DNA of 64,000 nt from IMG/VR virus record IMGVR_UViG_3300047557_001498, positions 32,001 through 96,000 of that record; one strand, given 5' to 3'. Below are positions 1,959-32,088 of this stretch, piece by piece (the first letter of the stretch is position 1; every line of letters starts with the position of its first letter). A model generated the notes under the pieces. The model was not told where the DNA came from, made no database searches, and saw only the letters and a list, made by a program, of their open reading frames with translations. The stretch comes from a virus. The translations under genes were made by a program, and so were the position numbers.

Positions 1959-3131
1959 TTATTGAACAACAACCCACTCTGTTCCATTATACCAAAGTGT
2001 TCTAGATTGATTTGGCCAAAGTGTATAATCAAGGTTAGTATCAATTCCCCAAACACTATCCTTAATAGTAAGATTGTTTGCAGTTGAACCATTGAAAATT
2101 GTTACAAGTTGTCCAGTAGTTGGTGATGTGACAGTCGCAATATTGTAATCAACAGCAACACGACTAACTACCCAACGTGAATCAGATGGTAAAGATAACG
2201 GAGCGGCGGTGTAAATACCAACACTATTTGTTTTGTGATGTGGGTTTACTTCCCAAGAAATACCATTTGTACCACGAGTAGCGTATGAACTAACGGCGGC
2301 AGTTGAACTACCTTCGAGTGATGAAAGTCTCACGGATTCTGTTTTAAAATTACGATGTTCGATTGTATTATCAATCAATGATTTTGCCGTATCTGCAAGA
2401 ATTGAACGAGCGGAGTTTGTGGAAAAAGCAGATGTTGATGCGAAATCAGCATGGTTAGCATCAAAAGCAAAAGTTGATGTATCAGCTCTGAAAGAAAGTC
2501 CAGATTTTACAGCAAACTGAGCAGTATCAGATTTAGCAGAATGAGCTGCAGTTGATGCATAAGTTGCCAAATCCGAAAGAGTTGCCTTACCGGCTGCACG
2601 AGTGGTATCAGCGAATCCTGATGTATTTGAACGATTACTTATTCTAGTAGAATCTGCAAATGTTGCCGTTACAGACGAACCTGCATTTGTTGCAAACTTG
2701 GCAGTATCAGCTTTTTCAGCGTGTTTTGCAGAAACTGCATTTGTTGCATTTGTTGCAAGTTCAGCAGTTGCAGAAAACTTTGATTTAAGTGCATAAGGAA
2801 CTCTATGAAGTGGTAATCTACCTAATGTTTGTCCATTAACATACGCATATACAAAAATATTTGATTGATTTGAAACTAAAACATTATCTGGAATATCCTT
2901 CAATGTATAATTAACAATACCGTTTGATACTTCAATATCAACATTCTCCACATACCAAAGAGCAGATGTATTCAAATGTGAGTTTTCATCGAAAGTATCA
3001 TCTGCAAGATAAACAGAAAACTTTGATTGTGCAGGCGTTCCTCCTGGTACATGAGCTTGATACTGTAAACTTGTTTGTGCAGAAAGATTAACTGCAAAGA
3101 TAAACGAAAGTGCGAGAATAAAATAACGCAT
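1959..3131 (-). CDS. Secreted Bacteroidota-type Ala-rich repeat protein (YQA...VPYAL family)
   Basis: Signal peptide MRYFILALSFIFAVNLSA|Q, QYQAHV and RVPYALKS motifs, then ~9-aa A-D-T-A-type repeats. GAGG RBS before ATG 3131. Confidence 0.65.
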   Translation of the reverse strand: MRYFILALSFIFAVNLSAQTSLQYQAHVPGGTPAQSKFSVYLADDTFDENSHLNTSALWYVENVDIEVSNGIVNYTLKDIPDNVLVSNQSNIFVYAYVNGQTLGRLPLHRVPYALKSKFSATAELATNATNAVSAKHAEKADTAKFATNAGSSVTATFADSTRISNRSNTSGFADTTRAAGKATLSDLATYASTAAHSAKSDTAQFAVKSGLSFRADTSTFAFDANHADFASTSAFSTNSARSILADTAKSLIDNTIEHRNFKTESVRLSSLEGSSTAAVSSYATRGTNGISWEVNPHHKTNSVGIYTAAPLSLPSDSRWVVSRVAVDYNIATVTSPTTGQLVTIFNGSTANNLTIKDSVWGIDTNLDYTLWPNQSRTLWYNGTEWVVVQ

Positions 3132-3150
3132 AAATAAATTCCTCATAAAT

Positions 3151-3591
3151 TTAATTAAAAATAACTGTTGTTGAATAAACTGAATTGTTTTTGTTTGTTA
3201 CTCGGATGATGTAAACTCCCTTGTTAGAAAGAGTAATTGTTTCTCCGGTAAAATTAAAATAACTACCGACTGATTTTCCATTCAAATCAAATATCTGAAT
3301 GTGTTTAATGTTCTCAGCATTTACATTGAAAAACCCATTGTTTGTTGGGTTTGGAAATACTTGAACATCGAATTTTGACAGTTGGTAATCCGATTCATCA
3401 CCAACAGAAAGCGCAACTTTACTCGGAATACGGATTCCAATATGGAATCCATTGGAGTAACCGGCAATCACTTGACCAAGTGACGCATTTTTGTTTCCAC
3501 CCACTACAACCCTTTTTAAAAGGTTAGGTGAAGTTTCATTTGCTAAACCGATTGAATAGCAAATAAGAAGAGCAATGATATACTTCATCAT
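3151..3591 (-). CDS. T9SS type A (Por) C-terminal sorting domain protein with signal peptide
   Basis: Hydrophobic N-terminal signal; VQVFPNPT...IQIFDLNGK...LSNKGVYIIRV...TTVIFN matches the T9SS CTD pattern. Confidence 0.85.
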   Translation of the reverse strand: MMKYIIALLICYSIGLANETSPNLLKRVVVGGNKNASLGQVIAGYSNGFHIGIRIPSKVALSVGDESDYQLSKFDVQVFPNPTNNGFFNVNAENIKHIQIFDLNGKSVGSYFNFTGETITLSNKGVYIIRVTNKNNSVYSTTVIFN

Positions 3592-3644
3592 CGTAACTCC
3601 ATATTGGTTAATAAAAATACTTATATTTCTCTCTTTATCTAATA

Positions 3645-3675
3645 CAAATATAGAGATTTTCTATCAGATATGAAA
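3645..3675 (-). promoter_or_regulatory. Bacteroidota-type promoter (TTTC-N19-TATATTTG)
   Basis: -7 element TAnnTTTG upstream of the T9SS gene pair. Confidence 0.55.
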
Positions 3676-3704
3676 GCATTATTTTTTATTTTTGATTGGC
3701 ATTA

Positions 3705-4040
3705 TTATCTTTGTTTTGGGTTGGCATCCCTTATTATTTGTTTAATCCATTCATATACTTCTGGATTATGTGAATTTACTCGCCATTCTTGCACTGCTTT
3801 GTAATCCAAATCATTACTACCAAATGGTCTAACATCACATATTCTTGCAACGTCTCCAGTCTGGAATTGAATATGCCATGCACATTTTTCAACACCATCG
3901 AAATCATCACCGTAATCAGTAGAAAATAATGGATTACCAAACGTTCTCGTTAGATGTTTGAAATCACAACTCATAACGCCAACTTGTGGTGCCAATTTAA
4001 TTTGAATATCTTTACCTACTCGGTATTTAGGATATTGCAT
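3705..4040 (-). CDS. Hypothetical phage protein
   Basis: ORF with GAGG RBS and TATTTATA motif at 4061-4068. Confidence 0.6.
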   Translation of the reverse strand: MQYPKYRVGKDIQIKLAPQVGVMSCDFKHLTRTFGNPLFSTDYGDDFDGVEKCAWHIQFQTGDVARICDVRPFGSNDLDYKAVQEWRVNSHNPEVYEWIKQIIRDANPKQR

Positions 4041-4071
4041 AATTACCTCATTAAAATTTGTATAAATAATT

Positions 4072-4254
4072 TCACATTATTGGATTAAATGTGTTTCCAA
4101 AAATATGTGAAACTGCTAACTGTATTAAATAAAAACCAATAGCGATTGGTAGTCCTAAAACGAATACCAAAAGTATAGTTACGATAGAATAAAATAAATA
4201 CAATATGGGTGTTACTACTCCCATATAAATAAATTCCAAAAACTTGTCAAACAT
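4072..4254 (-). CDS. Small membrane protein
   Basis: 60 aa, almost entirely hydrophobic; AGGT RBS. Confidence 0.55.
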   Translation of the reverse strand: MFDKFLEFIYMGVVTPILYLFYSIVTILLVFVLGLPIAIGFYLIQLAVSHIFGNTFNPIM

Positions 4255-4269
4255 AAAAAAACCTTTGTG

Positions 4270-4566
4270 TTATATTTTAGTAATGTGATCAATGAGGTAT
4301 TTGTAGTCTACTGAATTTAGATTTACCATCCCCTTTAATATTGGCATATCTATTGTTTTCAATCTACTCTTAAAAAACATTTTTAGTTGGTCCTTTACTT
4401 GCGGATAGACTGCATTAAAAAAATCATCATCTGTAAAATCATTGGTGGATAATAAAAATGTCAATTCATCATCCACCATTGATTGTAATTCTTTTCTTAA
4501 ATCATCACTTAATGTGATGACATCTATAACAGTTCTTGTATCAAAATTCATTGTCTCTATAAACAT
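4270..4566 (-). CDS. Hypothetical protein
   Basis: ORF track; tightly packed in the operon. Confidence 0.5.
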   Translation of the reverse strand: MFIETMNFDTRTVIDVITLSDDLRKELQSMVDDELTFLLSTNDFTDDDFFNAVYPQVKDQLKMFFKSRLKTIDMPILKGMVNLNSVDYKYLIDHITKI

Positions 4567-4753
4567 TGTCTATGATATTATCAGTGTATATTACTTTTGG
4601 TTCTGTTAGATATGAAAAAGCCATACTCTTAATGTCTTCCTCTGTCATTCCTTTCTTCTTTGCTTCTTTCAAATCTTTTTTAAATATTTTTGTTTTGTTA
4701 CCATTATTTGCATAAAACGTCCATCCATCAACAAATATAAATGGATTATTCAT
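4541..4753 (-). CDS. Hypothetical protein
   Basis: ORF track; start probably MMNNPF overlapping the upstream stop. Confidence 0.5.
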   Translation of the reverse strand: MNNPFIFVDGWTFYANNGNKTKIFKKDLKEAKKKGMTEEDIKSMAFSYLTEPKVIYTDNIIDNVYRDNEF

Positions 4754-5375
4754 CATCAAAGTCCTCGTCATCTTCTAAATCGGAAAAATCTTCATCATCC
4801 CAACCTTCATCTTCATAATCGAGTTCATCTTCTTCGATGTCATCAAAATCATCATCCCAATCTTCATCATCTAATTCGGAATCATCGTAATCGAGATCAT
4901 CGTATGAATCTAATTCATAATCATCTTTCATATTGTTTTCTCCATTATAGTATTTCAAATATCCAGATACGGCACGTAAATAATCTTCCGCAATCGTTAC
5001 TTTATATTGAAGCCAATCTTCAAACATTTCTCCATCTTCTATCATGTGATAGATTCTTTCGGCATTTTCCATTATAGAAAGAAGCTGAGCCTTCATCATT
5101 TTATCTTCACCTTCTTCTTGCCCTTCAAATTTTCTATAAGCACTTGATAGTTTACTTTCAATTTGTTCTGTTATCTTTTTAGCAATCTTATATTTTTTAT
5201 AGTTCCTTTTTAACTCGGAAGCATTTTTTGATTCCATCGTTTTCTTTTTTAATGAACCCATTGTATTAACTGCTTCGTAAAGATTCTTTTGCATTTCTCT
5301 AAATTTTATGCGTGCACTTTCTTTTTTCAAAGCACTATTAACTTCTTCACGCACAAATTTTTTTAATGAACTCAT
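4746..5375 (-). CDS. Hypothetical protein with basic N-terminus and long Asp/Glu-rich C-terminal tail
   Basis: GGAG RBS before ATG 5375 (MSSLKKFVREE); last ~60 aa mostly D/E. Confidence 0.7.
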   Translation of the reverse strand: MSSLKKFVREEVNSALKKESARIKFREMQKNLYEAVNTMGSLKKKTMESKNASELKRNYKKYKIAKKITEQIESKLSSAYRKFEGQEEGEDKMMKAQLLSIMENAERIYHMIEDGEMFEDWLQYKVTIAEDYLRAVSGYLKYYNGENNMKDDYELDSYDDLDYDDSELDDEDWDDDFDDIEEDELDYEDEGWDDEDFSDLEDDEDFDDE

Positions 5376-5428
5376 TTCATTCTCCAATAATATAATATAA
5401 CTATACAGTCATAAATAAATATAATCTT

Positions 5429-8390: not shown

Positions 8391-9113
8391 TTAGTTTACA
8401 GATAGTGTTAAAAATTTACCATTATGTTTCTCTACACCGTAACAAATAACCCTTTCCATAGCGTGTGCAAGCAAATCACTATTGGGTGAATAATTTTCTT
8501 CAAACTCCTCGTATAGTAAATCAAGATCACACCCATTGAAAAATTTATGTAGATAGTCAGACTTAACTATAAACATTGATCCTGCAAAAAAACATCCATG
8601 ATTAAAAGAATCAACATAATTCATAAGCTTATCAATTTTATCAACACAGTTCATTCTATTCACATGATCAATCGGTTCTCTATATGTATCATAGAAATGA
8701 CGCTCTGATCCAGCCATGTACACATTATCATTTTCTTCCATAAAAGAAATTATTTCATAGAATCTATCTTTTGATTTTATTAACGGTTGTACTAACTGCA
8801 TTCTCCATATTATTCCAAAATTAGATCCGAATTTTTTATCATAATACTCAGATTTTTTACCATGTATTTTCAAAATATATTCATATCCCATATCCTTTAT
8901 CTTGTTCCAAACATAAACAAAAGGACCGTAATCCATTCCTTTATTTTTTACCATAAAAACTTCTTTAGCAAATAAACGAATATCATTAGTGTATTCAGTT
9001 TCTTCATTTATAGTAACATATAAGTGAACATCATCGTTTAGCAATGGTTGTATTTTTTCTTTTAATTCGTTCCACAATTCTTGGTAATATAGATGCAATA
9101 CAATAGCTACCAT
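8391..9113 (-). CDS. Rhamnan synthesis F (RgpF)-like glycosyltransferase
   Basis: AIVLHLYYQELW, NKGMDYGPF, KIHGKKS, FFAGSMF, AHAMER motifs. Confidence 0.8.
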   Translation of the reverse strand: MVAIVLHLYYQELWNELKEKIQPLLNDDVHLYVTINEETEYTNDIRLFAKEVFMVKNKGMDYGPFVYVWNKIKDMGYEYILKIHGKKSEYYDKKFGSNFGIIWRMQLVQPLIKSKDRFYEIISFMEENDNVYMAGSERHFYDTYREPIDHVNRMNCVDKIDKLMNYVDSFNHGCFFAGSMFIVKSDYLHKFFNGCDLDLLYEEFEENYSPNSDLLAHAMERVICYGVEKHNGKFLTLSVN

Positions 9114-9122
9114 TAACACACC

Positions 9123-9749
9123 TTAAATAATTTTAGAATAAAATTCGTTTTGTTTTTCTTGTTTTTCTATGGTCTTGAAATGCAAAAGTGAAAACTCTTG
9201 TTCTTCCGGAAATGCAGAATATCTTTCAAATCCTTCCAACCTTTCGTGTACTTTATTTTTCCAATTTATATTTTCACTATTTCTATAAATTCTAGTTTGA
9301 TAATCCGGCCAATTTATTCTATCCATATCATCAAGTTTCCATCCCCATTTTTTTATATGTTCATCGGTTATGCCCTCTACAATATTCCACCTTGGTACTA
9401 ATATCATTTCAACATTTTTGTTATCATTCAATATTAGATGTAGATTATCAATTAAAAATTCAGATGGAACTTCATCTGCATCTATATTAAAAATCCATTC
9501 TTTTGAACAATGTGATTTCAAATTATTTTTAAAATCAGAGAAATTATCATTTAGTGGAAATTTTAAATAAATTAGTTTTGAGAACTTATCAATATATTCC
9601 GAAACAACATCTTCTACTTCTGATGTTAGTTTTTCAGAATCGGCCTGAATGACTACCTCATCATCATTTGATATATGTTTTAGCAAATATCCCAATAAAA
9701 GATTTAATTCTTCTGCTTCGTTGCATACTGTTATTGTGTATGAAATCAT
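9123..9749 (-). CDS. Glycosyltransferase family 2
   Basis: ISYTITVCNE, WIFNIDADE, WPDYQTRIY, VHE. Confidence 0.85.
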   Translation of the reverse strand: MISYTITVCNEAEELNLLLGYLLKHISNDDEVVIQADSEKLTSEVEDVVSEYIDKFSKLIYLKFPLNDNFSDFKNNLKSHCSKEWIFNIDADEVPSEFLIDNLHLILNDNKNVEMILVPRWNIVEGITDEHIKKWGWKLDDMDRINWPDYQTRIYRNSENINWKNKVHERLEGFERYSAFPEEQEFSLLHFKTIEKQEKQNEFYSKII

Positions 9750-11044
9750 TAAGAAATCTCCGATGGTTTTTTAATTTTAGGCAAACTTAATGTAAGTCTT
9801 TCTGCAAATTTGGGCAATCGTTCATCTAATATCTTCTTGAAATTAGTGTGCATTTTTTTATATGACCATTTTTCTTTTATCTCAATAATAGACATTTTAG
9901 ATTTTGAATGATGTTTATTGTAGTTTAAGTAGACATCTTTTAATTTTTCAGACGCAACATCATAATCAACAGTAAACCAAGAAGAACCTTCATTTATTAT
10001 AGTATTCCAAACTGCACTTTGGTGAACTCTTTCCAATTTTCCAGGCAACAATATATTATTATTTGGATTGACAAAATCAACGTGGCCACTCCATCCTGAA
10101 ACTATAACTGGTTTGCCTGACCTCATAAACTCAGCAATAGGTCTTCCATATCCTTCTCCTTTTGTAAAAGAAACAAATGCCTTAATCTTATTATGATTGT
10201 ACAAAGTATTCATTTCTTTTTCATTTAAGTCTCCAAACATTAAGTATATTTTTGGCAACTTCTTTGCATCAACCATTTTTTTTATCGAATTTATTTTATT
10301 TTTTAATTCAGTTAAAGCAGTGTTTGAAAACGTACCCATAGAAGTTTTTAGAACAAGTGCAGGTGGATATTTCGTATCTTTGAATGTTTCTAAAAATAAA
10401 TGTATCAATCCAGAAACATCTTTTCTATCTTGACGAAATTCGCCCTTTAACCAATGACCAACAAAAAGAAAACAAAAATCTTCTTTTATTTTTGACATCT
10501 GTTCACTTACAGTTGTTGATTCTCTATTTTCTTTATTAAAAATATCAGTTCTAACCCCCTCATGTAAAATTTCAATAGGTTTTTTTATTTTTACTAAATC
10601 GATTATTTCTCCAGTAGTTTTATCCCTTTTTTCATAGGAAGTTTCAACAAAAACATTCTTTGCATGATGTGATGGAACCAATACCAAGTCCATTCTATTG
10701 CAACCTTCTATCCATTCGGGAGAGCATATATTTGTTTCTATACCAGCAGTTATACCAATATTGTATTTACCCATAGGTGTAAATTCTGATGGTATGGTAC
10801 ATTGAACCCAAATTTCTGGTTTAACAACAATGGGTTCATTTGAAATTCTGGAAATTATATCGATATGTTCTGGATTTGTTTCATCTAATGCATTCATTGG
10901 GGTGTCTCCCCAATTTATAGGAACTATTTTAATTTCAAATCTGTCCATTTCTATAAGTGATGTTACTAAATCTCTTGCATGAGATCCATAACCACTAACA
11001 GTTTCTACTGGTCCACAAAATACTAAATATGGTTTATTACTCAT
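9749..11044 (-). CDS. Glycosyltransferase, GT-B fold (GT4-like)
   Basis: SGYGSHAR, FLFVGHW, RKD, KGEGYGRPIAE, WSGHVDF. Confidence 0.85.
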   Translation of the reverse strand: MSNKPYLVFCGPVETVSGYGSHARDLVTSLIEMDRFEIKIVPINWGDTPMNALDETNPEHIDIISRISNEPIVVKPEIWVQCTIPSEFTPMGKYNIGITAGIETNICSPEWIEGCNRMDLVLVPSHHAKNVFVETSYEKRDKTTGEIIDLVKIKKPIEILHEGVRTDIFNKENRESTTVSEQMSKIKEDFCFLFVGHWLKGEFRQDRKDVSGLIHLFLETFKDTKYPPALVLKTSMGTFSNTALTELKNKINSIKKMVDAKKLPKIYLMFGDLNEKEMNTLYNHNKIKAFVSFTKGEGYGRPIAEFMRSGKPVIVSGWSGHVDFVNPNNNILLPGKLERVHQSAVWNTIINEGSSWFTVDYDVASEKLKDVYLNYNKHHSKSKMSIIEIKEKWSYKKMHTNFKKILDERLPKFAERLTLSLPKIKKPSEIS

Positions 11045-18758: not shown

Positions 18759-20381
18759 TTATGGTTTATAGAATACAAATATCGGCTCGTGTTTGAACCA
18801 CTCACCATTGAATAAAACTTTATTTGCTAGTCTTTCTGGATCAGAATTACCAATCATCTTTGTCATCAACATACACATTTTTCCTTTATATTCCATTCCA
18901 AGTGATTTCAAAATTTTTATGGAATCTTCTTCAAGGTTTATTGTTTTAGTTGCTGAAACTTTTATGTTTGCAATATTCCAACAAAGGTATCTATCGTTCT
19001 TCAAATATCTAACAGCAGTTTCAAGTGTTGGGCGAAGAAAGTTATCTCTCCAATCTGCATATTCTCCGTGTGATTTGTATGATTGAGTTTCATCGTCAGA
19101 ATACATTTCACGATTGAAATATGGCGGTGATGTGAAAACAAAATCTAACTTACCTTCATACTTTTGGAATTTAGGATTGTGTTGAATCAATTCTGAACCA
19201 TCTTGAAAAACATCATACGTGTGATCCTCTTTTACATCGAAAAATCTTGATGAAAGTGAACTACCTTTTTCACCAATGGATTTCAAATAAAAATCAGCAA
19301 GATATTCATAACGAGTTATTCCCAATTCTGGAATAGAATTGTCTGTATTAGGATCAGTTCCAACATAATGTATTGGACGACTTACAGACATTGCACCGAG
19401 TATTCTACCACCCCACCCTGCACTTGGATCATATACCGTCACCATTTCACTTGCCGGAATATGTTTCGTAAAATGTTCATACAAAAACTTTGCAGTCATT
19501 GGCGGAAAATTTACAGCAGGTTGTGAGAATGAAATACGGAATATCTGAAATGCTTGTGGAAATAACTTTGCACTCTTTTCATATACTCTAACCAAGAAAA
19601 CGTTTACTCTTGGTTCTTCACCGTCTTTTTTTATCATAAAATTATCAGACAATTCATCTATATCACCCAAATAAAAAATCATACTTTCATCAAGTATTCC
19701 ATCCTTAACAAACTCACGAATTTGATCGGCTTTGATAGTTAAATACTTTGTATATTTTTTATTGTAAGTTTCAAGTGTACACGATATTTTTGAAATACGC
19801 AAACCTTGTCCATCAAATCTACCATCACCATTCTTAAATGCTAAGAAGAAATCTCGAAGTGTTTCTCCCTCACGGAAGTATGGGTTCTTGATTTGATTTG
19901 ATGAAATGGATTTACTATACAAATACATTGAATCGTTATACAGAGTTCTACGCATAACATGATGAAATGTCTCTTTCATTTCATCGGTGAAGAAATCGTA
20001 AATAGATCGTGAAGTTTCACCGTTTGTTCCACTGGCAATTTTTGTTTTCAACATTGTTGGGAAGAATTGATTAGCTGCAGAACCGTTTTTAGAAAAATTG
20101 GCAATGACGCCGATGATGTCAGCGTCATTACCTTTTTCTGGATTATGAAAAATCTTTGAAGAATTGAATTGACGGAGCTTTGAAAATGATTGTATGATTT
20201 CTTCTTCACTTCTGCCAACAAGTGGCGGTTTACCATTTTCATCCCAATCTTTCAAAAACCTCATTCGTAAATCTTCTACCCATTCGGAAAACTTTTTATC
20301 GTCATAAGTTACCAACTCACCATATGTTATATTACATGGCCAGGACAGAACATTACCTTTTTCATAAAAATATTTTTGCAT
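18759..20381 (-). CDS. Putative DNA amino-methyltransferase, paralog 2
   Basis: VNFPP, DPSAGWGGRIL, FTSPPYFNREMY. Confidence 0.8.
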   Translation of the reverse strand: MQKYFYEKGNVLSWPCNITYGELVTYDDKKFSEWVEDLRMRFLKDWDENGKPPLVGRSEEEIIQSFSKLRQFNSSKIFHNPEKGNDADIIGVIANFSKNGSAANQFFPTMLKTKIASGTNGETSRSIYDFFTDEMKETFHHVMRRTLYNDSMYLYSKSISSNQIKNPYFREGETLRDFFLAFKNGDGRFDGQGLRISKISCTLETYNKKYTKYLTIKADQIREFVKDGILDESMIFYLGDIDELSDNFMIKKDGEEPRVNVFLVRVYEKSAKLFPQAFQIFRISFSQPAVNFPPMTAKFLYEHFTKHIPASEMVTVYDPSAGWGGRILGAMSVSRPIHYVGTDPNTDNSIPELGITRYEYLADFYLKSIGEKGSSLSSRFFDVKEDHTYDVFQDGSELIQHNPKFQKYEGKLDFVFTSPPYFNREMYSDDETQSYKSHGEYADWRDNFLRPTLETAVRYLKNDRYLCWNIANIKVSATKTINLEEDSIKILKSLGMEYKGKMCMLMTKMIGNSDPERLANKVLFNGEWFKHEPIFVFYKP

Positions 20382-21100
20382 CAGTTGTTATCCAATTTTA
20401 CTAAATAATATTTGGCTTCAAAATCATCAATATCAAATTCAACTTTTGCCAAACCTTCGGAAGAAACTTTAAGAGTTCCACCATTAAGGTCTTTATTAGC
20501 AGCAAGAATACCGTTAAAGTATTTTGCAGAGAAACTAATCGGATCAATATCACCACTTGCATTACAATCAATATCAATAGAGATACGGTTTGAATTTGTA
20601 TTTGAATAACCAAGAACAATTTGATATTTGTTCAATTTATCATTCTTCAATACCGTGAACTTTTCAATATCAGATAGTGCAGATTTTGCCTTAATGAATT
20701 TGTCAATAAATTCTTTTGTAATCGTAATATCCAATTCAAAAGGTGGCAACTCTTTTAGGTCTGGTGCAGGTGGAATTACTGCAAGGTCAGCCAACATATA
20801 ATTTACCGTAGTTGATTTGTCATCAATAGTTAATGAGAACGCCTTATCACCTGCACCGTTTACTTGAAAGTTTACTGTATTACCAAGAACTCCCAATAAA
20901 CTCACAAGCAGGTCAGTATTGTAAACTCCAAATTTCCAAGAATCTCCTTGAAAACTTTTTAACTTAACTTCACCAACAACACACTTATCATCGGAAATAA
21001 AACGAGTAGATAAACCACCGTTCATATTCCAAGCAACCGATTGAATCAACTTACCCAAGTGATACTTGCTGATAAAGTTGAGCAACTTTGATTTTTCCAT
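20381..21100 (-). CDS. Sliding clamp (gp45/PCNA-like)
   Basis: 239 aa; FGVYNTDLLVSLL, YMLADLAVI, LKVSSEGLAKVEF...YYLV; lies between PolB and the clamp loader. Confidence 0.75.
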   Translation of the reverse strand: MEKSKLLNFISKYHLGKLIQSVAWNMNGGLSTRFISDDKCVVGEVKLKSFQGDSWKFGVYNTDLLVSLLGVLGNTVNFQVNGAGDKAFSLTIDDKSTTVNYMLADLAVIPPAPDLKELPPFELDITITKEFIDKFIKAKSALSDIEKFTVLKNDKLNKYQIVLGYSNTNSNRISIDIDCNASGDIDPISFSAKYFNGILAANKDLNGGTLKVSSEGLAKVEFDIDDFEAKYYLVKLDNN

Positions 21101-21135
21101 AACAAAAATCCTTAATGATTAGAAAATAATGTATA

Positions 21136-21166
21136 CAAATATACGAAAAAATTTTGAATTATCAAA
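21136..21166 (-). promoter_or_regulatory. Bacteroidota sigma-type promoter TTTG-N19-TATATTTG
   Basis: Exact match to the -33 TTTG / -7 TAnnTTTG consensus, upstream of the clamp. Confidence 0.75.
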
Positions 21167-22076
21167 ACGAAAAAAACTTTTGTGCAACTTTTTTGTTCTC
21201 CGTTGGGAAATCCCACTTCATTGCATCATAAAAGTTTCTTAACTTGCCATCCAATTCAGATACAAATAATTCGTTGGCATCAAAATGTTCTTTGATAAAC
21301 TCAATAATTTCATCTGGATCGGAATCTCCACGAAAAGCCAACTCCTCCAAACCATATTTGTTGGCTTTTAAATAAGCAATCTTAACCTTATCACCATTTT
21401 TGATTGGAGGAAACTTTGGAGGACAACCAAATACTTTTAATAACTTATTGTAATTTATAGCAGCTTTAATATGTGATGGTGTTCCTTTTCCGAATTTACC
21501 AAGAACATCATCCGTAACCATGCTTGCATATTTTTTAATGTCTTTAATAGAAGATGTCTTTGCAACCTCTGAATACAAAACTGTATTCAGATTTCTTTTG
21601 AAAGATAAAATATTTTCATCTATGTCCTTTTTATTTTTGTCTTTGAGAATATCAACTATAACATTTTTCATAAGTTTCTGAAACGATTTTGGGAATGATG
21701 AGCGCACAATATCCAATCCTTTAACTTCTAACTTATCAACCGATACTCCATTATCTGAAATAATCCATAGTGCATATCTCTTTTTCTTTTGCCAGAAACC
21801 CGTTCTACCAATCATTTCTTGTTTAATTTCTAAACGATGTTTGTCTGTATTGAATATCTTTTTAGCAAAAACATCATAGAATTGATTAACATAATTTTGA
21901 ACTTCAGTTGCAATTTCGTAAATTTTAGGTGTCATAGAATCAATATCATTGGTATCTATTTCAGGAAATCTATTCTTAACGAGAGGCAGACAAGAAACGA
22001 AAACAGAATCCGTGTCTACATATTGAACATGATCTATTTCAACATTTTCATTTTTTATTATTTTTTTTATTTTCAT
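21162..22076 (-). CDS. Family B DNA polymerase, C-terminal subunit (motif C, thumb)
   Basis: YVDTDSVF, KKRYAL, KGLDIVRS, C-terminal QKFFSF; preceded by a basic MKIKKIIKNENVE leader. Confidence 0.9.
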   Translation of the reverse strand: MKIKKIIKNENVEIDHVQYVDTDSVFVSCLPLVKNRFPEIDTNDIDSMTPKIYEIATEVQNYVNQFYDVFAKKIFNTDKHRLEIKQEMIGRTGFWQKKKRYALWIISDNGVSVDKLEVKGLDIVRSSFPKSFQKLMKNVIVDILKDKNKKDIDENILSFKRNLNTVLYSEVAKTSSIKDIKKYASMVTDDVLGKFGKGTPSHIKAAINYNKLLKVFGCPPKFPPIKNGDKVKIAYLKANKYGLEELAFRGDSDPDEIIEFIKEHFDANELFVSELDGKLRNFYDAMKWDFPTENKKVAQKFFSF

Positions 22077-22092
22077 ATCGAATCAATATATT

Positions 22093-22740
22093 TTACAAAT
22101 TAAGAAAACTTTTATACGAACATGATATATTTGCATTGTCTAAATAGTGTTTAAATTCTACATCCGAATCTCTTTCTTCTGGTGTGAAATACCACGGTAT
22201 ATGTTTTGCCCTATAATCAACTAAACTAACACCACCGATGAATGCATCTTTTATATTGTAAACAGCAAATGTAGTATCTATCAATACATTTATCAAACAA
22301 CCTTCAAGTTCTGTTGATTGCGTTTGTCTAGATTTTTCATACGATTGTATGTGATCATAATACGGCGAATCAATCGGAACATCGTGAAAGTCTAATGTTA
22401 AACCAACCTTACCATAATCTGGAAATTTTTCAAGAATAGATATTGATTTTGTCAAACAATCTGTTGGTGTGATTGATAAATCTAAATCAGGATCTGTTAC
22501 AACATAGTAATCTGATTCTAATGAATTAACCAATCCCGAAATCCATGGTGCATGATGGCCTAAATTTTCAGTTCTAACAACTCTAATATCCGTTTCACTA
22601 TACCATTCCAAAAGAGGTTCATATGTACTATCATTATCTAAAATTATTATTTCACCGACCATATCAAACTTTGAAATGTATTCTATCATTTTTCTTGGCC
22701 ATGTCAATAAGTTTCTATTATTTATTATTACTGGAATCAT
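22093..22740 (-). CDS. GT2-like glycosyltransferase inserted between the two PolB halves
   Basis: IPVIINNRN, IIILDNDSTY, NLGH, YVVTDPDLD (DxD). Confidence 0.7.
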   Translation of the reverse strand: MIPVIINNRNLLTWPRKMIEYISKFDMVGEIIILDNDSTYEPLLEWYSETDIRVVRTENLGHHAPWISGLVNSLESDYYVVTDPDLDLSITPTDCLTKSISILEKFPDYGKVGLTLDFHDVPIDSPYYDHIQSYEKSRQTQSTELEGCLINVLIDTTFAVYNIKDAFIGGVSLVDYRAKHIPWYFTPEERDSDVEFKHYLDNANISCSYKSFLNL

Positions 22741-22755
22741 TTTTTTTCCAAAAAA

Positions 22756-24522
22756 TTATACAATATCATCTGTTTCTAAAAGTTCAGACGCCTTAACTTT
22801 TGTCAATATACCATTTCTCATTATGGATATAAAATTATTTGAATAGTATGTTCGAGTTGAATTGTCTTCCATTTTAACAATTACCTCATATCCAAGCTCT
22901 TTATTGTATTTCATGTTTATAGCAGCTTCTGTTTTTTTGATAACGGTTTGACCGGATAGAGTAACCGCTTCAGCATTATCAATATCATAAAAACGAAATG
23001 CCGGTAAACCCAAAATACCATACATAGAATTAAGAAGAATTTTTTGAACAAGTTGTCTTTTCTTGTAAAACTCATACTTTTCTGTATCACCCGCATTACC
23101 CCACTTCTTCATTTCATTTTTATACTCAACCCTCTTATCAAACCAATCAGAAAGAATTGCTGGAATAAGTCCTGTTCTTTCTGAACTATACATTACCCCA
23201 TTTGATGCAACGGTGTATTTGTATTTATCCAAAAATGCCTTTAACTTTTCTTTCGATACCGTTTCACCACCAACAATATATGCATCTACATTACCACGAA
23301 GAAATTCTTCTGCATTCCAATTCTCAATCTTAGCAATTTTTGTTTCCGGTGAAATGTTTAGTGTCATAATGATTGACGGATAAAGTGATGTTAAGTCCAA
23401 GTCATACATCCACTCATATCTACCAGGAACGGGATCCTTAACAAATGCTCCAATAAATCCCTTCTCACCACTATCTTTCAATTCTTGCATTTTTTCTTGT
23501 CTATCTGCAGGTTTGTTCGGAGCAACAACACCACCAATATGCTTCAGATATGTCAGCATCGCACCTTCAAGATACTTTGATGAATAAACAAAATCTTCAT
23601 AAGGAACATGACCGACATGAGCAATACCTCTAACTAAATCGATATATTGTAATTTCTTATCCAAATCAATTACCAACTCAACGTCAGTAATGTTGTAATC
23701 AATAAATGTATCAATATCGTTTTCCATCAAATCATCAAGATTACCCTCATACTCAACCTTACCACGACCAAGTTCTGTTATTGAAACATAATCTAATGAA
23801 TAAGATGGTAGCTCCTTATATGAGAATTTTTTGTAAACAGTCATATAATCTAACACAGATGTCCCACCTATTGTATATCGGTTTCTATATGGAGAATAAA
23901 ACATTTCACCGATAACAGAAAGATTGTTTGCTTGTTTTTTACCGAGAACACGTTTGATGCGATTATACAAATATGGAATATCGAATGCATCACAATTCCA
24001 ACCCGTCATAACATGGGGTTGAATTTCTTGAATAGCATCTATAAATTTTAATAACAAAGTTTTTTCATCGTAACATGGAATTACTGTTTTGTTATGGGTA
24101 GTTTTTGAATCTAATTTTTTTTTCTTGTCCAATACAAGAATTGTGTAATGGTCTGATGCAGAATCATGGTAAGCGATAGATGTTACTTCATTGTTACCTT
24201 GTGTTGGATCTGGAACACCTGTAATCATTTCAACCTCAATATCAAATGTCATAGTAACTATTCCATTTGACGGCATATCTGAATCGCCGTACATATCAAC
24301 GAGAATACGAGTAGTCTCTGCAATATCAGATTCAAACAAGTCTGGATCATTCTTAACAAAGTTTGTAACCTTTGATAGTTTATCACCATATAGAGAAATA
24401 TATTTACCGTTAGGATCTTTTTTGTAAGCATACGGTTTATATTCAAAATGTAATAAACCTTTGGTATCATCCCAAACCCACGCTTCTCTTGTATTTGTTT
24501 TTACGAAAATGTTTTGATACAT
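22756..24522 (-). CDS. Family B DNA polymerase, N-terminal subunit (3'-5' exonuclease, motifs A and B)
   Basis: FDIEV, GWNCDAFDIPY, YNITDV, DLTSLYPS, KILLNSMYG; no motif C; ends in a 44-aa Hint-like tail. Start MYQN at 24522. Confidence 0.9.
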   Translation of the reverse strand: MYQNIFVKTNTREAWVWDDTKGLLHFEYKPYAYKKDPNGKYISLYGDKLSKVTNFVKNDPDLFESDIAETTRILVDMYGDSDMPSNGIVTMTFDIEVEMITGVPDPTQGNNEVTSIAYHDSASDHYTILVLDKKKKLDSKTTHNKTVIPCYDEKTLLLKFIDAIQEIQPHVMTGWNCDAFDIPYLYNRIKRVLGKKQANNLSVIGEMFYSPYRNRYTIGGTSVLDYMTVYKKFSYKELPSYSLDYVSITELGRGKVEYEGNLDDLMENDIDTFIDYNITDVELVIDLDKKLQYIDLVRGIAHVGHVPYEDFVYSSKYLEGAMLTYLKHIGGVVAPNKPADRQEKMQELKDSGEKGFIGAFVKDPVPGRYEWMYDLDLTSLYPSIIMTLNISPETKIAKIENWNAEEFLRGNVDAYIVGGETVSKEKLKAFLDKYKYTVASNGVMYSSERTGLIPAILSDWFDKRVEYKNEMKKWGNAGDTEKYEFYKKRQLVQKILLNSMYGILGLPAFRFYDIDNAEAVTLSGQTVIKKTEAAINMKYNKELGYEVIVKMEDNSTRTYYSNNFISIMRNGILTKVKASELLETDDIV

Positions 24523-24523
24523 A

Positions 24524-25750
24524 TTAAACTCTCTTAAACATCCATATTGGTTCACAAAACTTTTTATCTCTATTCTTCTCGGCAAATTCTACACTATCAT
24601 CAAGGAAATGTCCGTCTCTTGTTGCAGTTCCTGCACCGGCAGAGTTTGGTCTTTTTGACATTTCCATTCCGATACAACCGATATATTCCATTCCATTCTC
24701 TACAAGGAAATCACTCATTGGGTTTGTTATCTCTAACCATTGACGACCGGTAGACCATGCAGAGTTTGTGTAAACATCTGCAATGTTTATTGCCATAATA
24801 CCACCAACTCTCAATGATGGGATGATATTACCCAATGTTTTATGTAGAAAGTTTTTATTCCATTCATCAATACCTTTATATCGAACCCAACTTTGTGTGT
24901 CTGATTGTGAATACTTCTCAACATTAAAATATGGTGGTGATGTAAACACCAAGTCAAAGTGTTCCGGATATTGTGTGAAATCGAAATCTTCTGCTGGTGA
25001 TGTATAAAAATTCGTTTTCTTTTTACTTTCAAAGAAACCTAAATTCTTTTCATAGAACTGTTTTTGTTCTTCATATATCGGATGATTTTCTACTCTTGGA
25101 TCCAAACCAACATAATGTTCGGTACAAGATGCTGCATAAAAACCAGCAAGTCTGTCACCCCATCCCATAGAGAAATCCAATACATTCTTTACACCCAACA
25201 TTTCATATAGAACTTTAGCAACATTTGGTTTAAACTGTGAACAAATGTATTTACGAAGACCTAACATGGTTCTTAATTCCGATTTACCAAGTGTTTCCAT
25301 TTTGAGTGAATACATGGAACCCATTAGTGATTTCATAAACTTATGGTTAGACCATGTTCTGGCAGGACCTGGTGAAACTGATGCATCAACTTCCCAACGA
25401 TTCTTTTGTTGAAAATAATTTGATGCATCGTTACCAGTATTCAAACGACTGAAATATAATTGTTTTCCCTCATATGTCAAAGCATATTTTGGTTCAGACG
25501 CCTTTCTTGGAAACCACTCACCTTCGGTTAGCAATTCATTCCAACGAATACCTTTGAGTTTTAGAAACTCTCGTTGTGCATCTTCAATAGTAATTTCAGC
25601 GTAAGGTAAAGGGTATGTCATTGCTATTTCAGCAAGACGATCCTTTACATATTCTTTATCGAAGTTTTCTTTTATGTATGTTATTTGTTCGGCAGTTATT
25701 GTTAGATACGGTTCCATACCGTAAAATTGTTGGAAGTAATCTTGTTGCAC
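24524..25750 (-). CDS. Putative DNA amino-methyltransferase, paralog 1
   Basis: SQFKP, DFSMGWGDRL, FTSPPYFNVEKY. Confidence 0.8.
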   Translation of the reverse strand: MQQDYFQQFYGMEPYLTITAEQITYIKENFDKEYVKDRLAEIAMTYPLPYAEITIEDAQREFLKLKGIRWNELLTEGEWFPRKASEPKYALTYEGKQLYFSRLNTGNDASNYFQQKNRWEVDASVSPGPARTWSNHKFMKSLMGSMYSLKMETLGKSELRTMLGLRKYICSQFKPNVAKVLYEMLGVKNVLDFSMGWGDRLAGFYAASCTEHYVGLDPRVENHPIYEEQKQFYEKNLGFFESKKKTNFYTSPAEDFDFTQYPEHFDLVFTSPPYFNVEKYSQSDTQSWVRYKGIDEWNKNFLHKTLGNIIPSLRVGGIMAINIADVYTNSAWSTGRQWLEITNPMSDFLVENGMEYIGCIGMEMSKRPNSAGAGTATRDGHFLDDSVEFAEKNRDKKFCEPIWMFKRV

Positions 25751-31884: not shown

Positions 31885-32088
31885 TTATTTACGGGATAAT
31901 AAAAAATAAAGTCCAAAAAATAACAGCGCTACCGAGTAAAATATAATATCGGTAACGATGTAACTCCCTGTAAGTTTTGTCACTAAAGCAAAAGCCGCAT
32001 CGAATCCAAGCGGATTGAAAAAAGTCCCAAGTATTAAACATACTTTTGCCAACACATCTTTGTATTTTTTTGGTTTTCTTTCTGACAT
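31885..32088 (-). CDS. Small two-TM membrane protein
   Basis: Hydrophobic segments around FFNPLGFDA; late motif at 32136-32143. Confidence 0.6.
   Translation of the reverse strand: MSERKPKKYKDVLAKVCLILGTFFNPLGFDAAFALVTKLTGSYIVTDIIFYSVALLFFGLYFLLSRK

Follow-up and report, generated by a model that had tools for sequence, protein, structure and literature searches.

The 64,000-nt window analysed here, which covers positions 32,001 to 96,000 of the IMG/VR virus record IMGVR_UViG_3300047557_001498, encodes its family B DNA polymerase (PolB) in two separate genes. On balance we think it probable that a cassette has broken this polymerase into a two-subunit enzyme, whose halves are docked by a non-splicing, intein-derived tail on one half and a short leader on the other. 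This reading builds on the homology of the tail to inteins, the loss of splicing chemistry, the status of both peptides as insertions, purifying selection on the tail, the complementary charges of tail and leader, and their patchy distribution on the polymerase tree. By analogy with split inteins, the tail and leader would bind each other physically and this contact would take part in the assembly of the enzyme.

The polymerase occupies two open reading frames (ORFs) on the minus strand, an N-half at 22756-24522 and a C-half at 21162-22076, as the first-pass annotation of this sequence had described. In Pfam the N-half matches PF03104 and positions 27-217 of PF00136 (exonuclease domain, motifs A and B), and the C-half, which starts MKIKKIIKNENVEIDHVQYVDTDS, matches the contiguous positions 218-355 of PF00136 (motif C and thumb). 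Both halves score above the curated cut-offs and the motifs DLDLTSLYPS, KILLNSMYG and YVDTDS are all present, such that the exonuclease domain and motifs A, B, and C of a family B DNA polymerase are complete across the pair. What is a single gene in relatives is represented here by adjacent same-strand ORFs with zero residues missing, the arrangement of a fractured gene. The N-half is taken to start with the ATG at 24522 because homologues begin MYQNI, and a longer ORF with a TTG start at 24585 was rejected as an artefact on the same grounds. No second PolB match occurs in the 115-kb virus record containing the window.

Comparison with unsplit relatives identifies both new termini as insertions, in agreement with the earlier proposal. 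The closest cultured relative, Microcystis phage Mel-JY01, has a single polymerase gene reading ...YNTELGTIGKDYIQYIDTDS, and more than 40 IMG/VR contigs have a single gene of 837-842 residues reading ...YNKELKTDDTDYVQYVDTDS. In the best unsplit contig (L003; 838-residue PolB), residues 1-543 are 97% identical to the window N-half and the C-terminal part is ~90% identical to the C-half. The DNA of the two is collinear with 91-93% identity on both flanks, and the break lies at 22897/22033 in the window and 7625/7645 in L003 (blastn). Because this collinearity holds outside 22034-22896, the tail is wholly extra (a pure insertion), the leader replaces a loop of 4-5 residues (KTDDT/TIGK in unsplit relatives), and no polymerase residue has been lost. 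In total, the insertion adds a 44-residue tail and a leader of roughly 14 residues. The break falls between ...YNKELG and ...DHVQYVDTDS and leaves motif C intact. This is ~13 codons upstream of the pol-c intein site, which lies within motif C (YxDTD/S, with the slash marking the insertion point); the element is thus not a pol-c intein by position, and the first-pass annotation was right to place the break away from that site. A search for a co-conversion tract by sliding identity to L003, L026, and L061 returned a slight dip beside the break that is uninformative.

Related polymerases bear true inteins in motif C (YxDTD/S...HN/S), contiguous as well as naturally split. One of these (L062) is a complete split intein with a 118-residue N-fragment and a 46-residue C-fragment, and the N-fragment matches the Aes123 PolB1 split intein (PDB 9HTH) at E 7e-8. 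When a profile of 28 tails was compared to a profile of 21 pol-c intein N-parts (hhalign), the two aligned over 48 columns with a probability of 93.5% (P 2.3e-7, score 39.5). The alignment places the tail on the last 48 positions of the N-terminal intein fragment (IntN), and both end at a stop codon. As controls for this score, 150 column shuffles had a mean of 8.8 (sd 1.7, maximum 15) and the reversed alignment reached 21.3. A smaller profile of six tails found the same region of the single Aes123 protein with P 6.5e-4. The tail is modelled by AlphaFold2 (AF2) as four to five strands, with a predicted local distance difference test (pLDDT) of 82-88. When this model was compared to 48,161 representative PDB chains in a search independent of Foldseek, the top 21 matches were all Hint domains (Z 5.0-2.6), including the Pho PolII, PI-PfuI, KlbA, Npu DnaE, NrdJ-1, gp41-1, and Aes123 inteins and hedgehog. 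These matches cover the second half of IntN (e.g., gp41-1 37-85 and Npu DnaE 44-95). The only Foldseek matches with a low root-mean-square deviation (1.4-1.8 Å over 42 residues) are inteins, including 9HTH, at E-values that are not significant, and Hint families are among the clusters nearest to the tail in ESM features. Further, the beta3 motif of many tails, YEIELEDG, is near-identical to the YEIELESG of the intein P0131. Sequence profiles and modelled fold together support the homology of the tail to the distal part of a split-intein N-fragment of the Aes123-PolB1 type. The likeness of the tail to split inteins had been noticed from the sequence, with gp41-1 and NrdJ-1 as the models; the split-intein likeness has held, while the closest relative is of the Aes123-PolB1 type. 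It had also been suggested that both peptides be compared to Hint domains, and homology is detected for the tail only (by profile and in the 48,161-chain search), as the leader aligned solely through shared extein residues.

It is improbable that the resemblance of the tail to inteins is convergent. In that case the tail would be a small beta-rich domain inserted in one PolB subfamily, and the gene would have split there at a later time. Such a reading would fit with the sequence searches, where the tail matched nothing in Pfam at E up to 10 and only two chains at chance level in the PDB sequence-profile search, and thus no Hint family in either, and with the Foldseek E-values. It would also fit with P0009, an unsplit PolB of 918 residues with a 79-residue insertion (residues 541-619) at exactly the break site. 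The first 42 residues of this insertion are tail-like and lie in cis, the remainder (IIDFIRKVHKHEF...SRLHEN) has no matches, and the insertion does not align with the intein profile. Motifs resembling blocks F and G were considered in the insertion and dropped, as neither the whole nor its second half gave a signal against a profile of six complete pol-c inteins. P0009 may be a re-fused or an ancestral form. Conversely, convergence does not account for a co-terminal profile alignment with a score far beyond the shuffled and reversed controls, for 21 Hint domains at the top of 48,161 chains, or for a YEIELE(D/S)G motif shared almost exactly with P0131. Nor does it account for a matched intein that belongs to the same gene, at a neighbouring site and with the same fragment-gene-fragment layout (Aes123, L062).

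While the tail retains the likeness of an intein, the residues required for splicing are absent, as the first-pass annotation had listed. The residue following ...ELG is Y in the window and varies among the 28 tails (Y/D/C/E/K...), with no Cys or Ser at the window junction. The block B motif TxxH reads YSNN in the window; across the 28 tails the equivalent of T is mostly Y/K/D and that of H is D/E/S/N/T/Q/A/R, never His. Neither peptide has a counterpart of block A, blocks F and G, the terminal HN, or the +1 nucleophile, and the leader continues straight into ...VEIDHVQYVDTDS, which is polymerase sequence in unsplit relatives. With 44 and ~14 residues (~58 in total) and only the last 48 IntN positions covered, the two peptides fall short of a complete Hint fold, which needs about 130-150 residues (PMC11923092). 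Read from these sequences, splicing chemistry is lost across the whole tail family.

The peptides are widespread. Other polymerases broken at this point, with homologous tail and leader, are those of L026/L060 and L061 (77% identical), the metagenomic P0001 and P0002, and that of the 484-kb phage LR756508 (36-45% identical), such that polymerases sharing both peptides at the same site are only 36-77% identical. A profile search that covered 1.8 billion cluster representatives, with counts given as 50%-identity clusters, returned at least 28 N-halves ending in the tail among the best 150 clusters. Their consensus is h-x-h-E-L-E-D-G ... V-x-V-x-R-N-G ... A-x-E-L-x-E-T-D-E-I-I-stop. At least 35 of 120 homologues with the length of a C-half start with M-K-I-K-K-I, in which K2 and I3 are nearly invariant. 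Pairs of tail and leader from one locus are known in four lineages only. Between L026 and L061, nonsynonymous (dN) and synonymous (dS) divergence of the tail are 0.06 and 1.12 (dN/dS ~0.05), compared to 0.06 and 1.70 for the adjacent polymerase; between the window and L026, the tail evolves ~2x faster than the polymerase, yet is clearly constrained. Judged by these rates, the tail is under purifying selection. The tail also appears to be confined to this gene. It had been suggested that the same peptides could be sought at other fractured genes, but a search of all proteins >90 residues with the tail profile gave 12 matches, every one a PolB N-half. The phage's own record contains one copy, LR756508 was the only one of 50,697 phage records that the tail matched in tblastn, and scans with P0018 and P0131 for further loci with context returned only unsplit or too-distant polymerases.

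The same observations make it very improbable that the split gene is decaying or non-functional, or that its halves are still covalently joined by an unusual reaction. The record is ~65% complete and a second polymerase could lie beyond it, and in the relatives L026 and L060 DTDS is interrupted once more, by 5 nt. In opposition to decay, neither ORF is disrupted, no motif is missing, identity to intact relatives is 90-97%, and selection is purifying. In opposition to joining, the nucleophiles, the TxxH motif, and blocks A, F, and G are all absent, and ~58 residues are left of a fold of ~130-150 residues. Joining at the RNA level was rejected, as no Rfam family, group I introns included, matched in 20500-25500 at E up to 1.

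Split inteins provide a model for how such fragments could act after splicing is lost. The gp41-1 Hint fold is composed of two pseudo-symmetric units with the natural split point within the second, and beta6, the first strand of the C-terminal fragment (IntC), pairs antiparallel with beta3 in a 'charge zipper', which is described for gp41-1 and Npu DnaE and thought to start fragment association (bioRxiv 10.1101/546465). The segregation of charge in split inteins is also treated in PMC11923092. In our alignment, by homology to the gp41-1 structure, the tail starts with beta3 and runs as far as the canonical split point, with the leader in the place of beta6. The net charges of beta3 and beta6 are opposite in all eight true inteins of the family for which both parts are known, six of them basic/acidic and two (P0082 and P0255) acidic/basic. 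An acidic tail and a basic leader had been proposed for the window, and these charges hold across the family, with the beta3-like strand negative in 25 of 28 tails and the leader positive in 34 of 35 C-half clusters.

We envisage that a mobile cassette broke the sole PolB gene ~13 codons ahead of motif C, where the palm domain has a surface loop. This cassette would have brought the coding sequence of the tail closed by a stop codon, then a cargo gene, and finally a new start followed by the coding sequence of the leader; the tail would stem from the last ~45 residues of an IntN of the Aes123-PolB1 type, and the leader would take the place of beta6. No ligation would be needed because every polymerase residue is present on one half or the other and, with the splicing parts also gone, the product would be a two-subunit polymerase. 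The acidic beta3-like strand of the tail would pair with the basic strand of the leader and dock the halves, equivalent to the 'capture' step of a split intein without its chemistry.

Several observations weigh against this scenario. The structural matches are weak in absolute terms (Foldseek E 0.9-5, Z at most 5.0), as is expected for 44 residues, and the AF2 model of the tail is not independent of the sequence likeness to inteins. The beta3-like strand of the window itself is only weakly acidic (-2). Comparison of the leader to IntC by hhalign gave no statistical support for homology. The IntC-like leader of the first-pass annotation therefore stands in its position, its M-K-I-K-K-I pattern, and its charge, but not in hhalign homology, and on these three features an IntC origin is a candidate reading. 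True IntN fragments are partly disordered before binding; the tail folds confidently alone in AF2 and so could be an autonomous small domain. As P0009 is unsplit, a tail-like segment can exist without a break. No homing endonuclease gene lies between the halves of the window, where a GT2-like ORF is found. Lastly, the native polymerase interface may suffice, because other split polymerases and Aeh1 NrdA assemble without intein parts, according to the work cited in PMC2677866.

Two further results concern the leader. When the C-half was modelled alone (AF2), residues 1-22 were disordered, leader included. The leader was aligned by tblastn with MKYNKEL on the N-side of the break, but only 12 of 21 bases match, in AT-rich DNA. 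As P0188 begins MKIKKINKELG..., the leader may still in part have arisen by duplication of ...MKYNKEL..., or it may be a sequence favoured at starts.

It is possible, though we regard it as rather unlikely, that the tail is indeed derived from an intein but that tail and leader are passengers, with the halves assembling through the normal polymerase interface. The peptides would then be kept for the solubility or folding of the halves, for the efficiency of an A-rich start in the leader, or as part of the cassette. The break is in a loop flanked on either side by large native interfaces, and intein-less split gp43 and NrdA function as complexes, as summarized in PMC2677866. The leader is rich in Lys/AAA, similar to many strong starts in AT-rich phages, the tail folds alone, and P0009 retains a tail-like segment in an unsplit enzyme. 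Passengers would not, however, be expected to experience selection as strong as that on the neighbouring polymerase, or to be conserved between polymerases that are only 36% identical. The opposite charges of tail and leader across the family mirror the covarying charges of true inteins, and the leader conserves I3 and I6, for which an A-rich start by itself would give no reason. We favour docking by the tail and leader over passenger peptides.

The distribution of the tail speaks to how the break arose. In a tree of 44 polymerase N-parts (a quick IQ-TREE search), the ten tail-bearing rows need ten state changes, and well-supported branches force at least six of these. The window falls within a group of unsplit relatives with 99% support. 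Because homologous peptides sit patchily on the tree, the cassette has been transferred repeatedly, lost repeatedly, or both. The comparative evidence suggests that tail and leader are probably part of a scattered mobile cassette, which may have spread by homing. In LR756508 (L002) and P0255, one gene has both a true pol-c intein and the tail/leader break and, as a consequence, the remnant is a separate element next to the pol-c site and not a decayed resident intein. In LR756508 (LR756508.1 257000-269500; ORFs 2364-5417 and 8423-10288), inteins occupy motif B and motif C besides the break, and the motif B intein ends ...IGQ/S, not HN. Complete inteins also accompany the break in P0130 (a third near the exonuclease domain) and P0003 (one after GWNC), and P0119 is listed with them.

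The gene between the halves differs among phages. In L026, L060, and L061 it encodes a protein of 296-320 residues with three or four NUMOD3 motifs. These motifs are typical of free-standing homing endonucleases. In LR756508, four unrelated ORFs, a deaminase among them, lie between the halves. In the window, the 215-residue middle ORF matches PF00535 at E 0.022 only (Pfam), has a feature score of 0.99 to viral GT2-like clusters, and a template modelling (TM) score of 0.88 to a bacterial GT2. This gene has no match in the phage collection and does not occur within 6 kb of PolB in relatives. We hold it to be evenly balanced whether the whole represents a widespread mobile cassette in which a chemistry-free intein unit serves as a protein clasp, breaking an essential gene at a new site that then becomes a slot for cargo, here a glycosyltransferase.

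Features of the split polymerase locus in the window
Feature	Position	Strand	Description
Polymerase part of N-half	22891..24522	-	N-terminal domain, 3'-5' exonuclease, palm motif A, fingers motif B; ends ...AINMKYNKELG
44-residue tail (YEVIVKMEDNSTRTYYSNNFISIMRNGILTKVKASELLETDDIV)	22759..22890	-	Remnant of the second half of a split-intein N-fragment (beta3 to IntN end), without catalytic residues
TAA stop of N-half	22756..22758	-	
15-nt spacer (TTTTTTGGAAAAAAA, coding strand)	22741..22755	-	Next ORF stays in the frame of the N-half
215-residue GT2-like (GT-A fold) gene	22093..22740	-	At the position of the homing-endonuclease-like gene of relatives
16-nt spacer before C-half start	22077..22092	-	No terminator-like site on this strand
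C-half leader (MKIKKIIKNENVEI)	22035..22076	-	Basic, Ile-patterned; candidate equivalent of beta6, the first IntC strand
Polymerase part of C-half	21162..22034	-	Motif C (YVDTDS), thumb, C-terminal QKFFSF, stop codon
Whole insertion relative to nearest unsplit relative	22034..22896	-	863 nt replacing 19 nt (blastn vs L003)

Among known systems, the nearest is Aes123 PolB1, the naturally split, cysteine-less intein of T4-like Aeromonas phages (JN377899; PDB 9HTH; Humberg et al. 2025, PMC11923092). The Aes123 record (JN377899.1, L093) is laid out as gp43B1+IntN / endonuclease / IntC+gp43B2, and the window has the same gene in the same layout of a polymerase piece with an N-fragment, an intervening gene (in Aes123 a free-standing endonuclease), and a C-fragment with the second piece. 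The window tail aligns with the last ~48 residues of the IntN family and ends at the same point, its fold matches include 9HTH, and in both systems the beta3 and beta6 strands are oppositely charged. Unlike the window, the Aes123 intein lies in motif C (YxDTD/S), has 120 + 39 residues, retains Ser1, TxxH, blocks F/G, and HN+S, and splices. The polarity of charge between tail and leader is also reversed compared to Aes123 and is the same as in the family members P0082, P0255, and P0131. The Aes123 polymerase is encoded by three genes, the break between gp43A and gp43B1 lying upstream of motif B without an intein; the second break alone has the split intein, together with a gene for a Vsr-type endonuclease. 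This endonuclease shows no similarity to the endonuclease-like protein of L026.

Fractured genes, in which split inteins flank a free-standing homing endonuclease (Dassa et al. 2009, PMC2677866), share with the window an essential replication gene present as adjacent same-strand ORFs, new ends derived from Hint, and unsplit alleles in close relatives. The window's relatives also have an endonuclease-like gene between the halves. The inteins of the Dassa et al. fractured genes are complete and trans-splicing, whereas the Hint of the window is cut down to one unit, cannot splice, and has a glycosyltransferase-like gene in the middle. Intein-less genes in pieces include nrdA-a/mobE/nrdA-b of Aeh1 and gp43A/gp43B of the Aeromonas phages 44RR and 25 (Edgell, Karam, and Petrov groups, as cited in PMC2677866). 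As presented there, the subunits of these replication enzymes, split after invasion by an endonuclease cassette, work non-covalently, as is proposed here; the breaks, to the extent that source describes them, are at other sites and, unlike the window, intein-less. Assembly of split inteins by a charge zipper followed by a capture step (Beyer et al. 2019, bioRxiv 10.1101/546465; Shah et al. 2013, cited there) offers a further parallel, as the pieces retained in the window match the pair of strands and the second pseudo-symmetric unit with which, in this account, association begins, and their charges are complementary. In inteins, following the same account, capture is followed by folding of the complete Hint domain and by splicing, while here it would be the end point.

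The window differs from these systems in that a non-catalytic part of Hint alone has been kept, at a site that neither permits nor requires splicing. Full-text searches on phage split DNA polymerases with inteins and on intein remnants and inactive, degenerate, or non-splicing inteins returned no published account of such remnants. If the proposed docking is correct, the protein part of a mobile element has been reused for another job. It would then be understandable that an endonuclease cassette can cut into an essential gene where splicing is impossible, and evolution would here have put intein fragments to use in nature as a heterodimerisation module and nothing else. Inteins are usually seen as selfish elements, for which splicing or loss are the only tolerated fates. 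The model predicts a small (about 44 + 10 residues), naturally optimised, non-covalent docking pair with many diverged variants, which are candidates for orthogonal protein tags. For annotation, PolB 'fragments' that end ...ELxETDEII or start MKIKKI would, on the strength of these motifs, be halves of a working enzyme and not pseudogenes.

Some features of the locus and its relatives stand apart from these arguments. The C-half of the L026 type is broken a second time (L026:8870-8885; L060 identical), where five nucleotides, TAATG, lie between the Thr and Asp codons of YVDT/DS, yielding a 22-residue peptide (MKIKQIIRKENVHVDHVAYVDT) and then MDSVFVS... from the overlapping ATG. This is not a sequencing error, because several clusters (P0160, P0164, P0166, and P0167; 70-81% identical to the window C-half) start likewise. 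In P0232, the residues QI are inserted in frame at this position. The TAATG gap may reflect ribosome bypass, a three-chain enzyme, or a scar that protects the site from an endonuclease.

In the window, the N-half and the GT2-like ORF share one reading frame with only TAA and five codons (FFGKK) between them (22741-22758), and read-through of the N-half TAA would yield a fusion of the polymerase N-half to the glycosyltransferase-like protein. The C-half terminus QKFFSF (21162-21185) is kept in split and unsplit relatives alike; it is similar to the C-terminal clamp-binding peptide of T4-type polymerases. A gene of 239 residues (20381-21100) lies directly downstream of the C-half and also beside PolB in relatives, with no Pfam match; from its position alone, we would guess that it encodes the sliding clamp. 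Two SPPY-motif N6/N4 DNA methyltransferase-like genes (PF01555; 540 and 408 residues) flank the block of polymerase and putative clamp on the minus strand (18759-20381 and 24524-25750), and L026/L060 have neighbours of 385 and 540 residues as in the polymerase block of the window.

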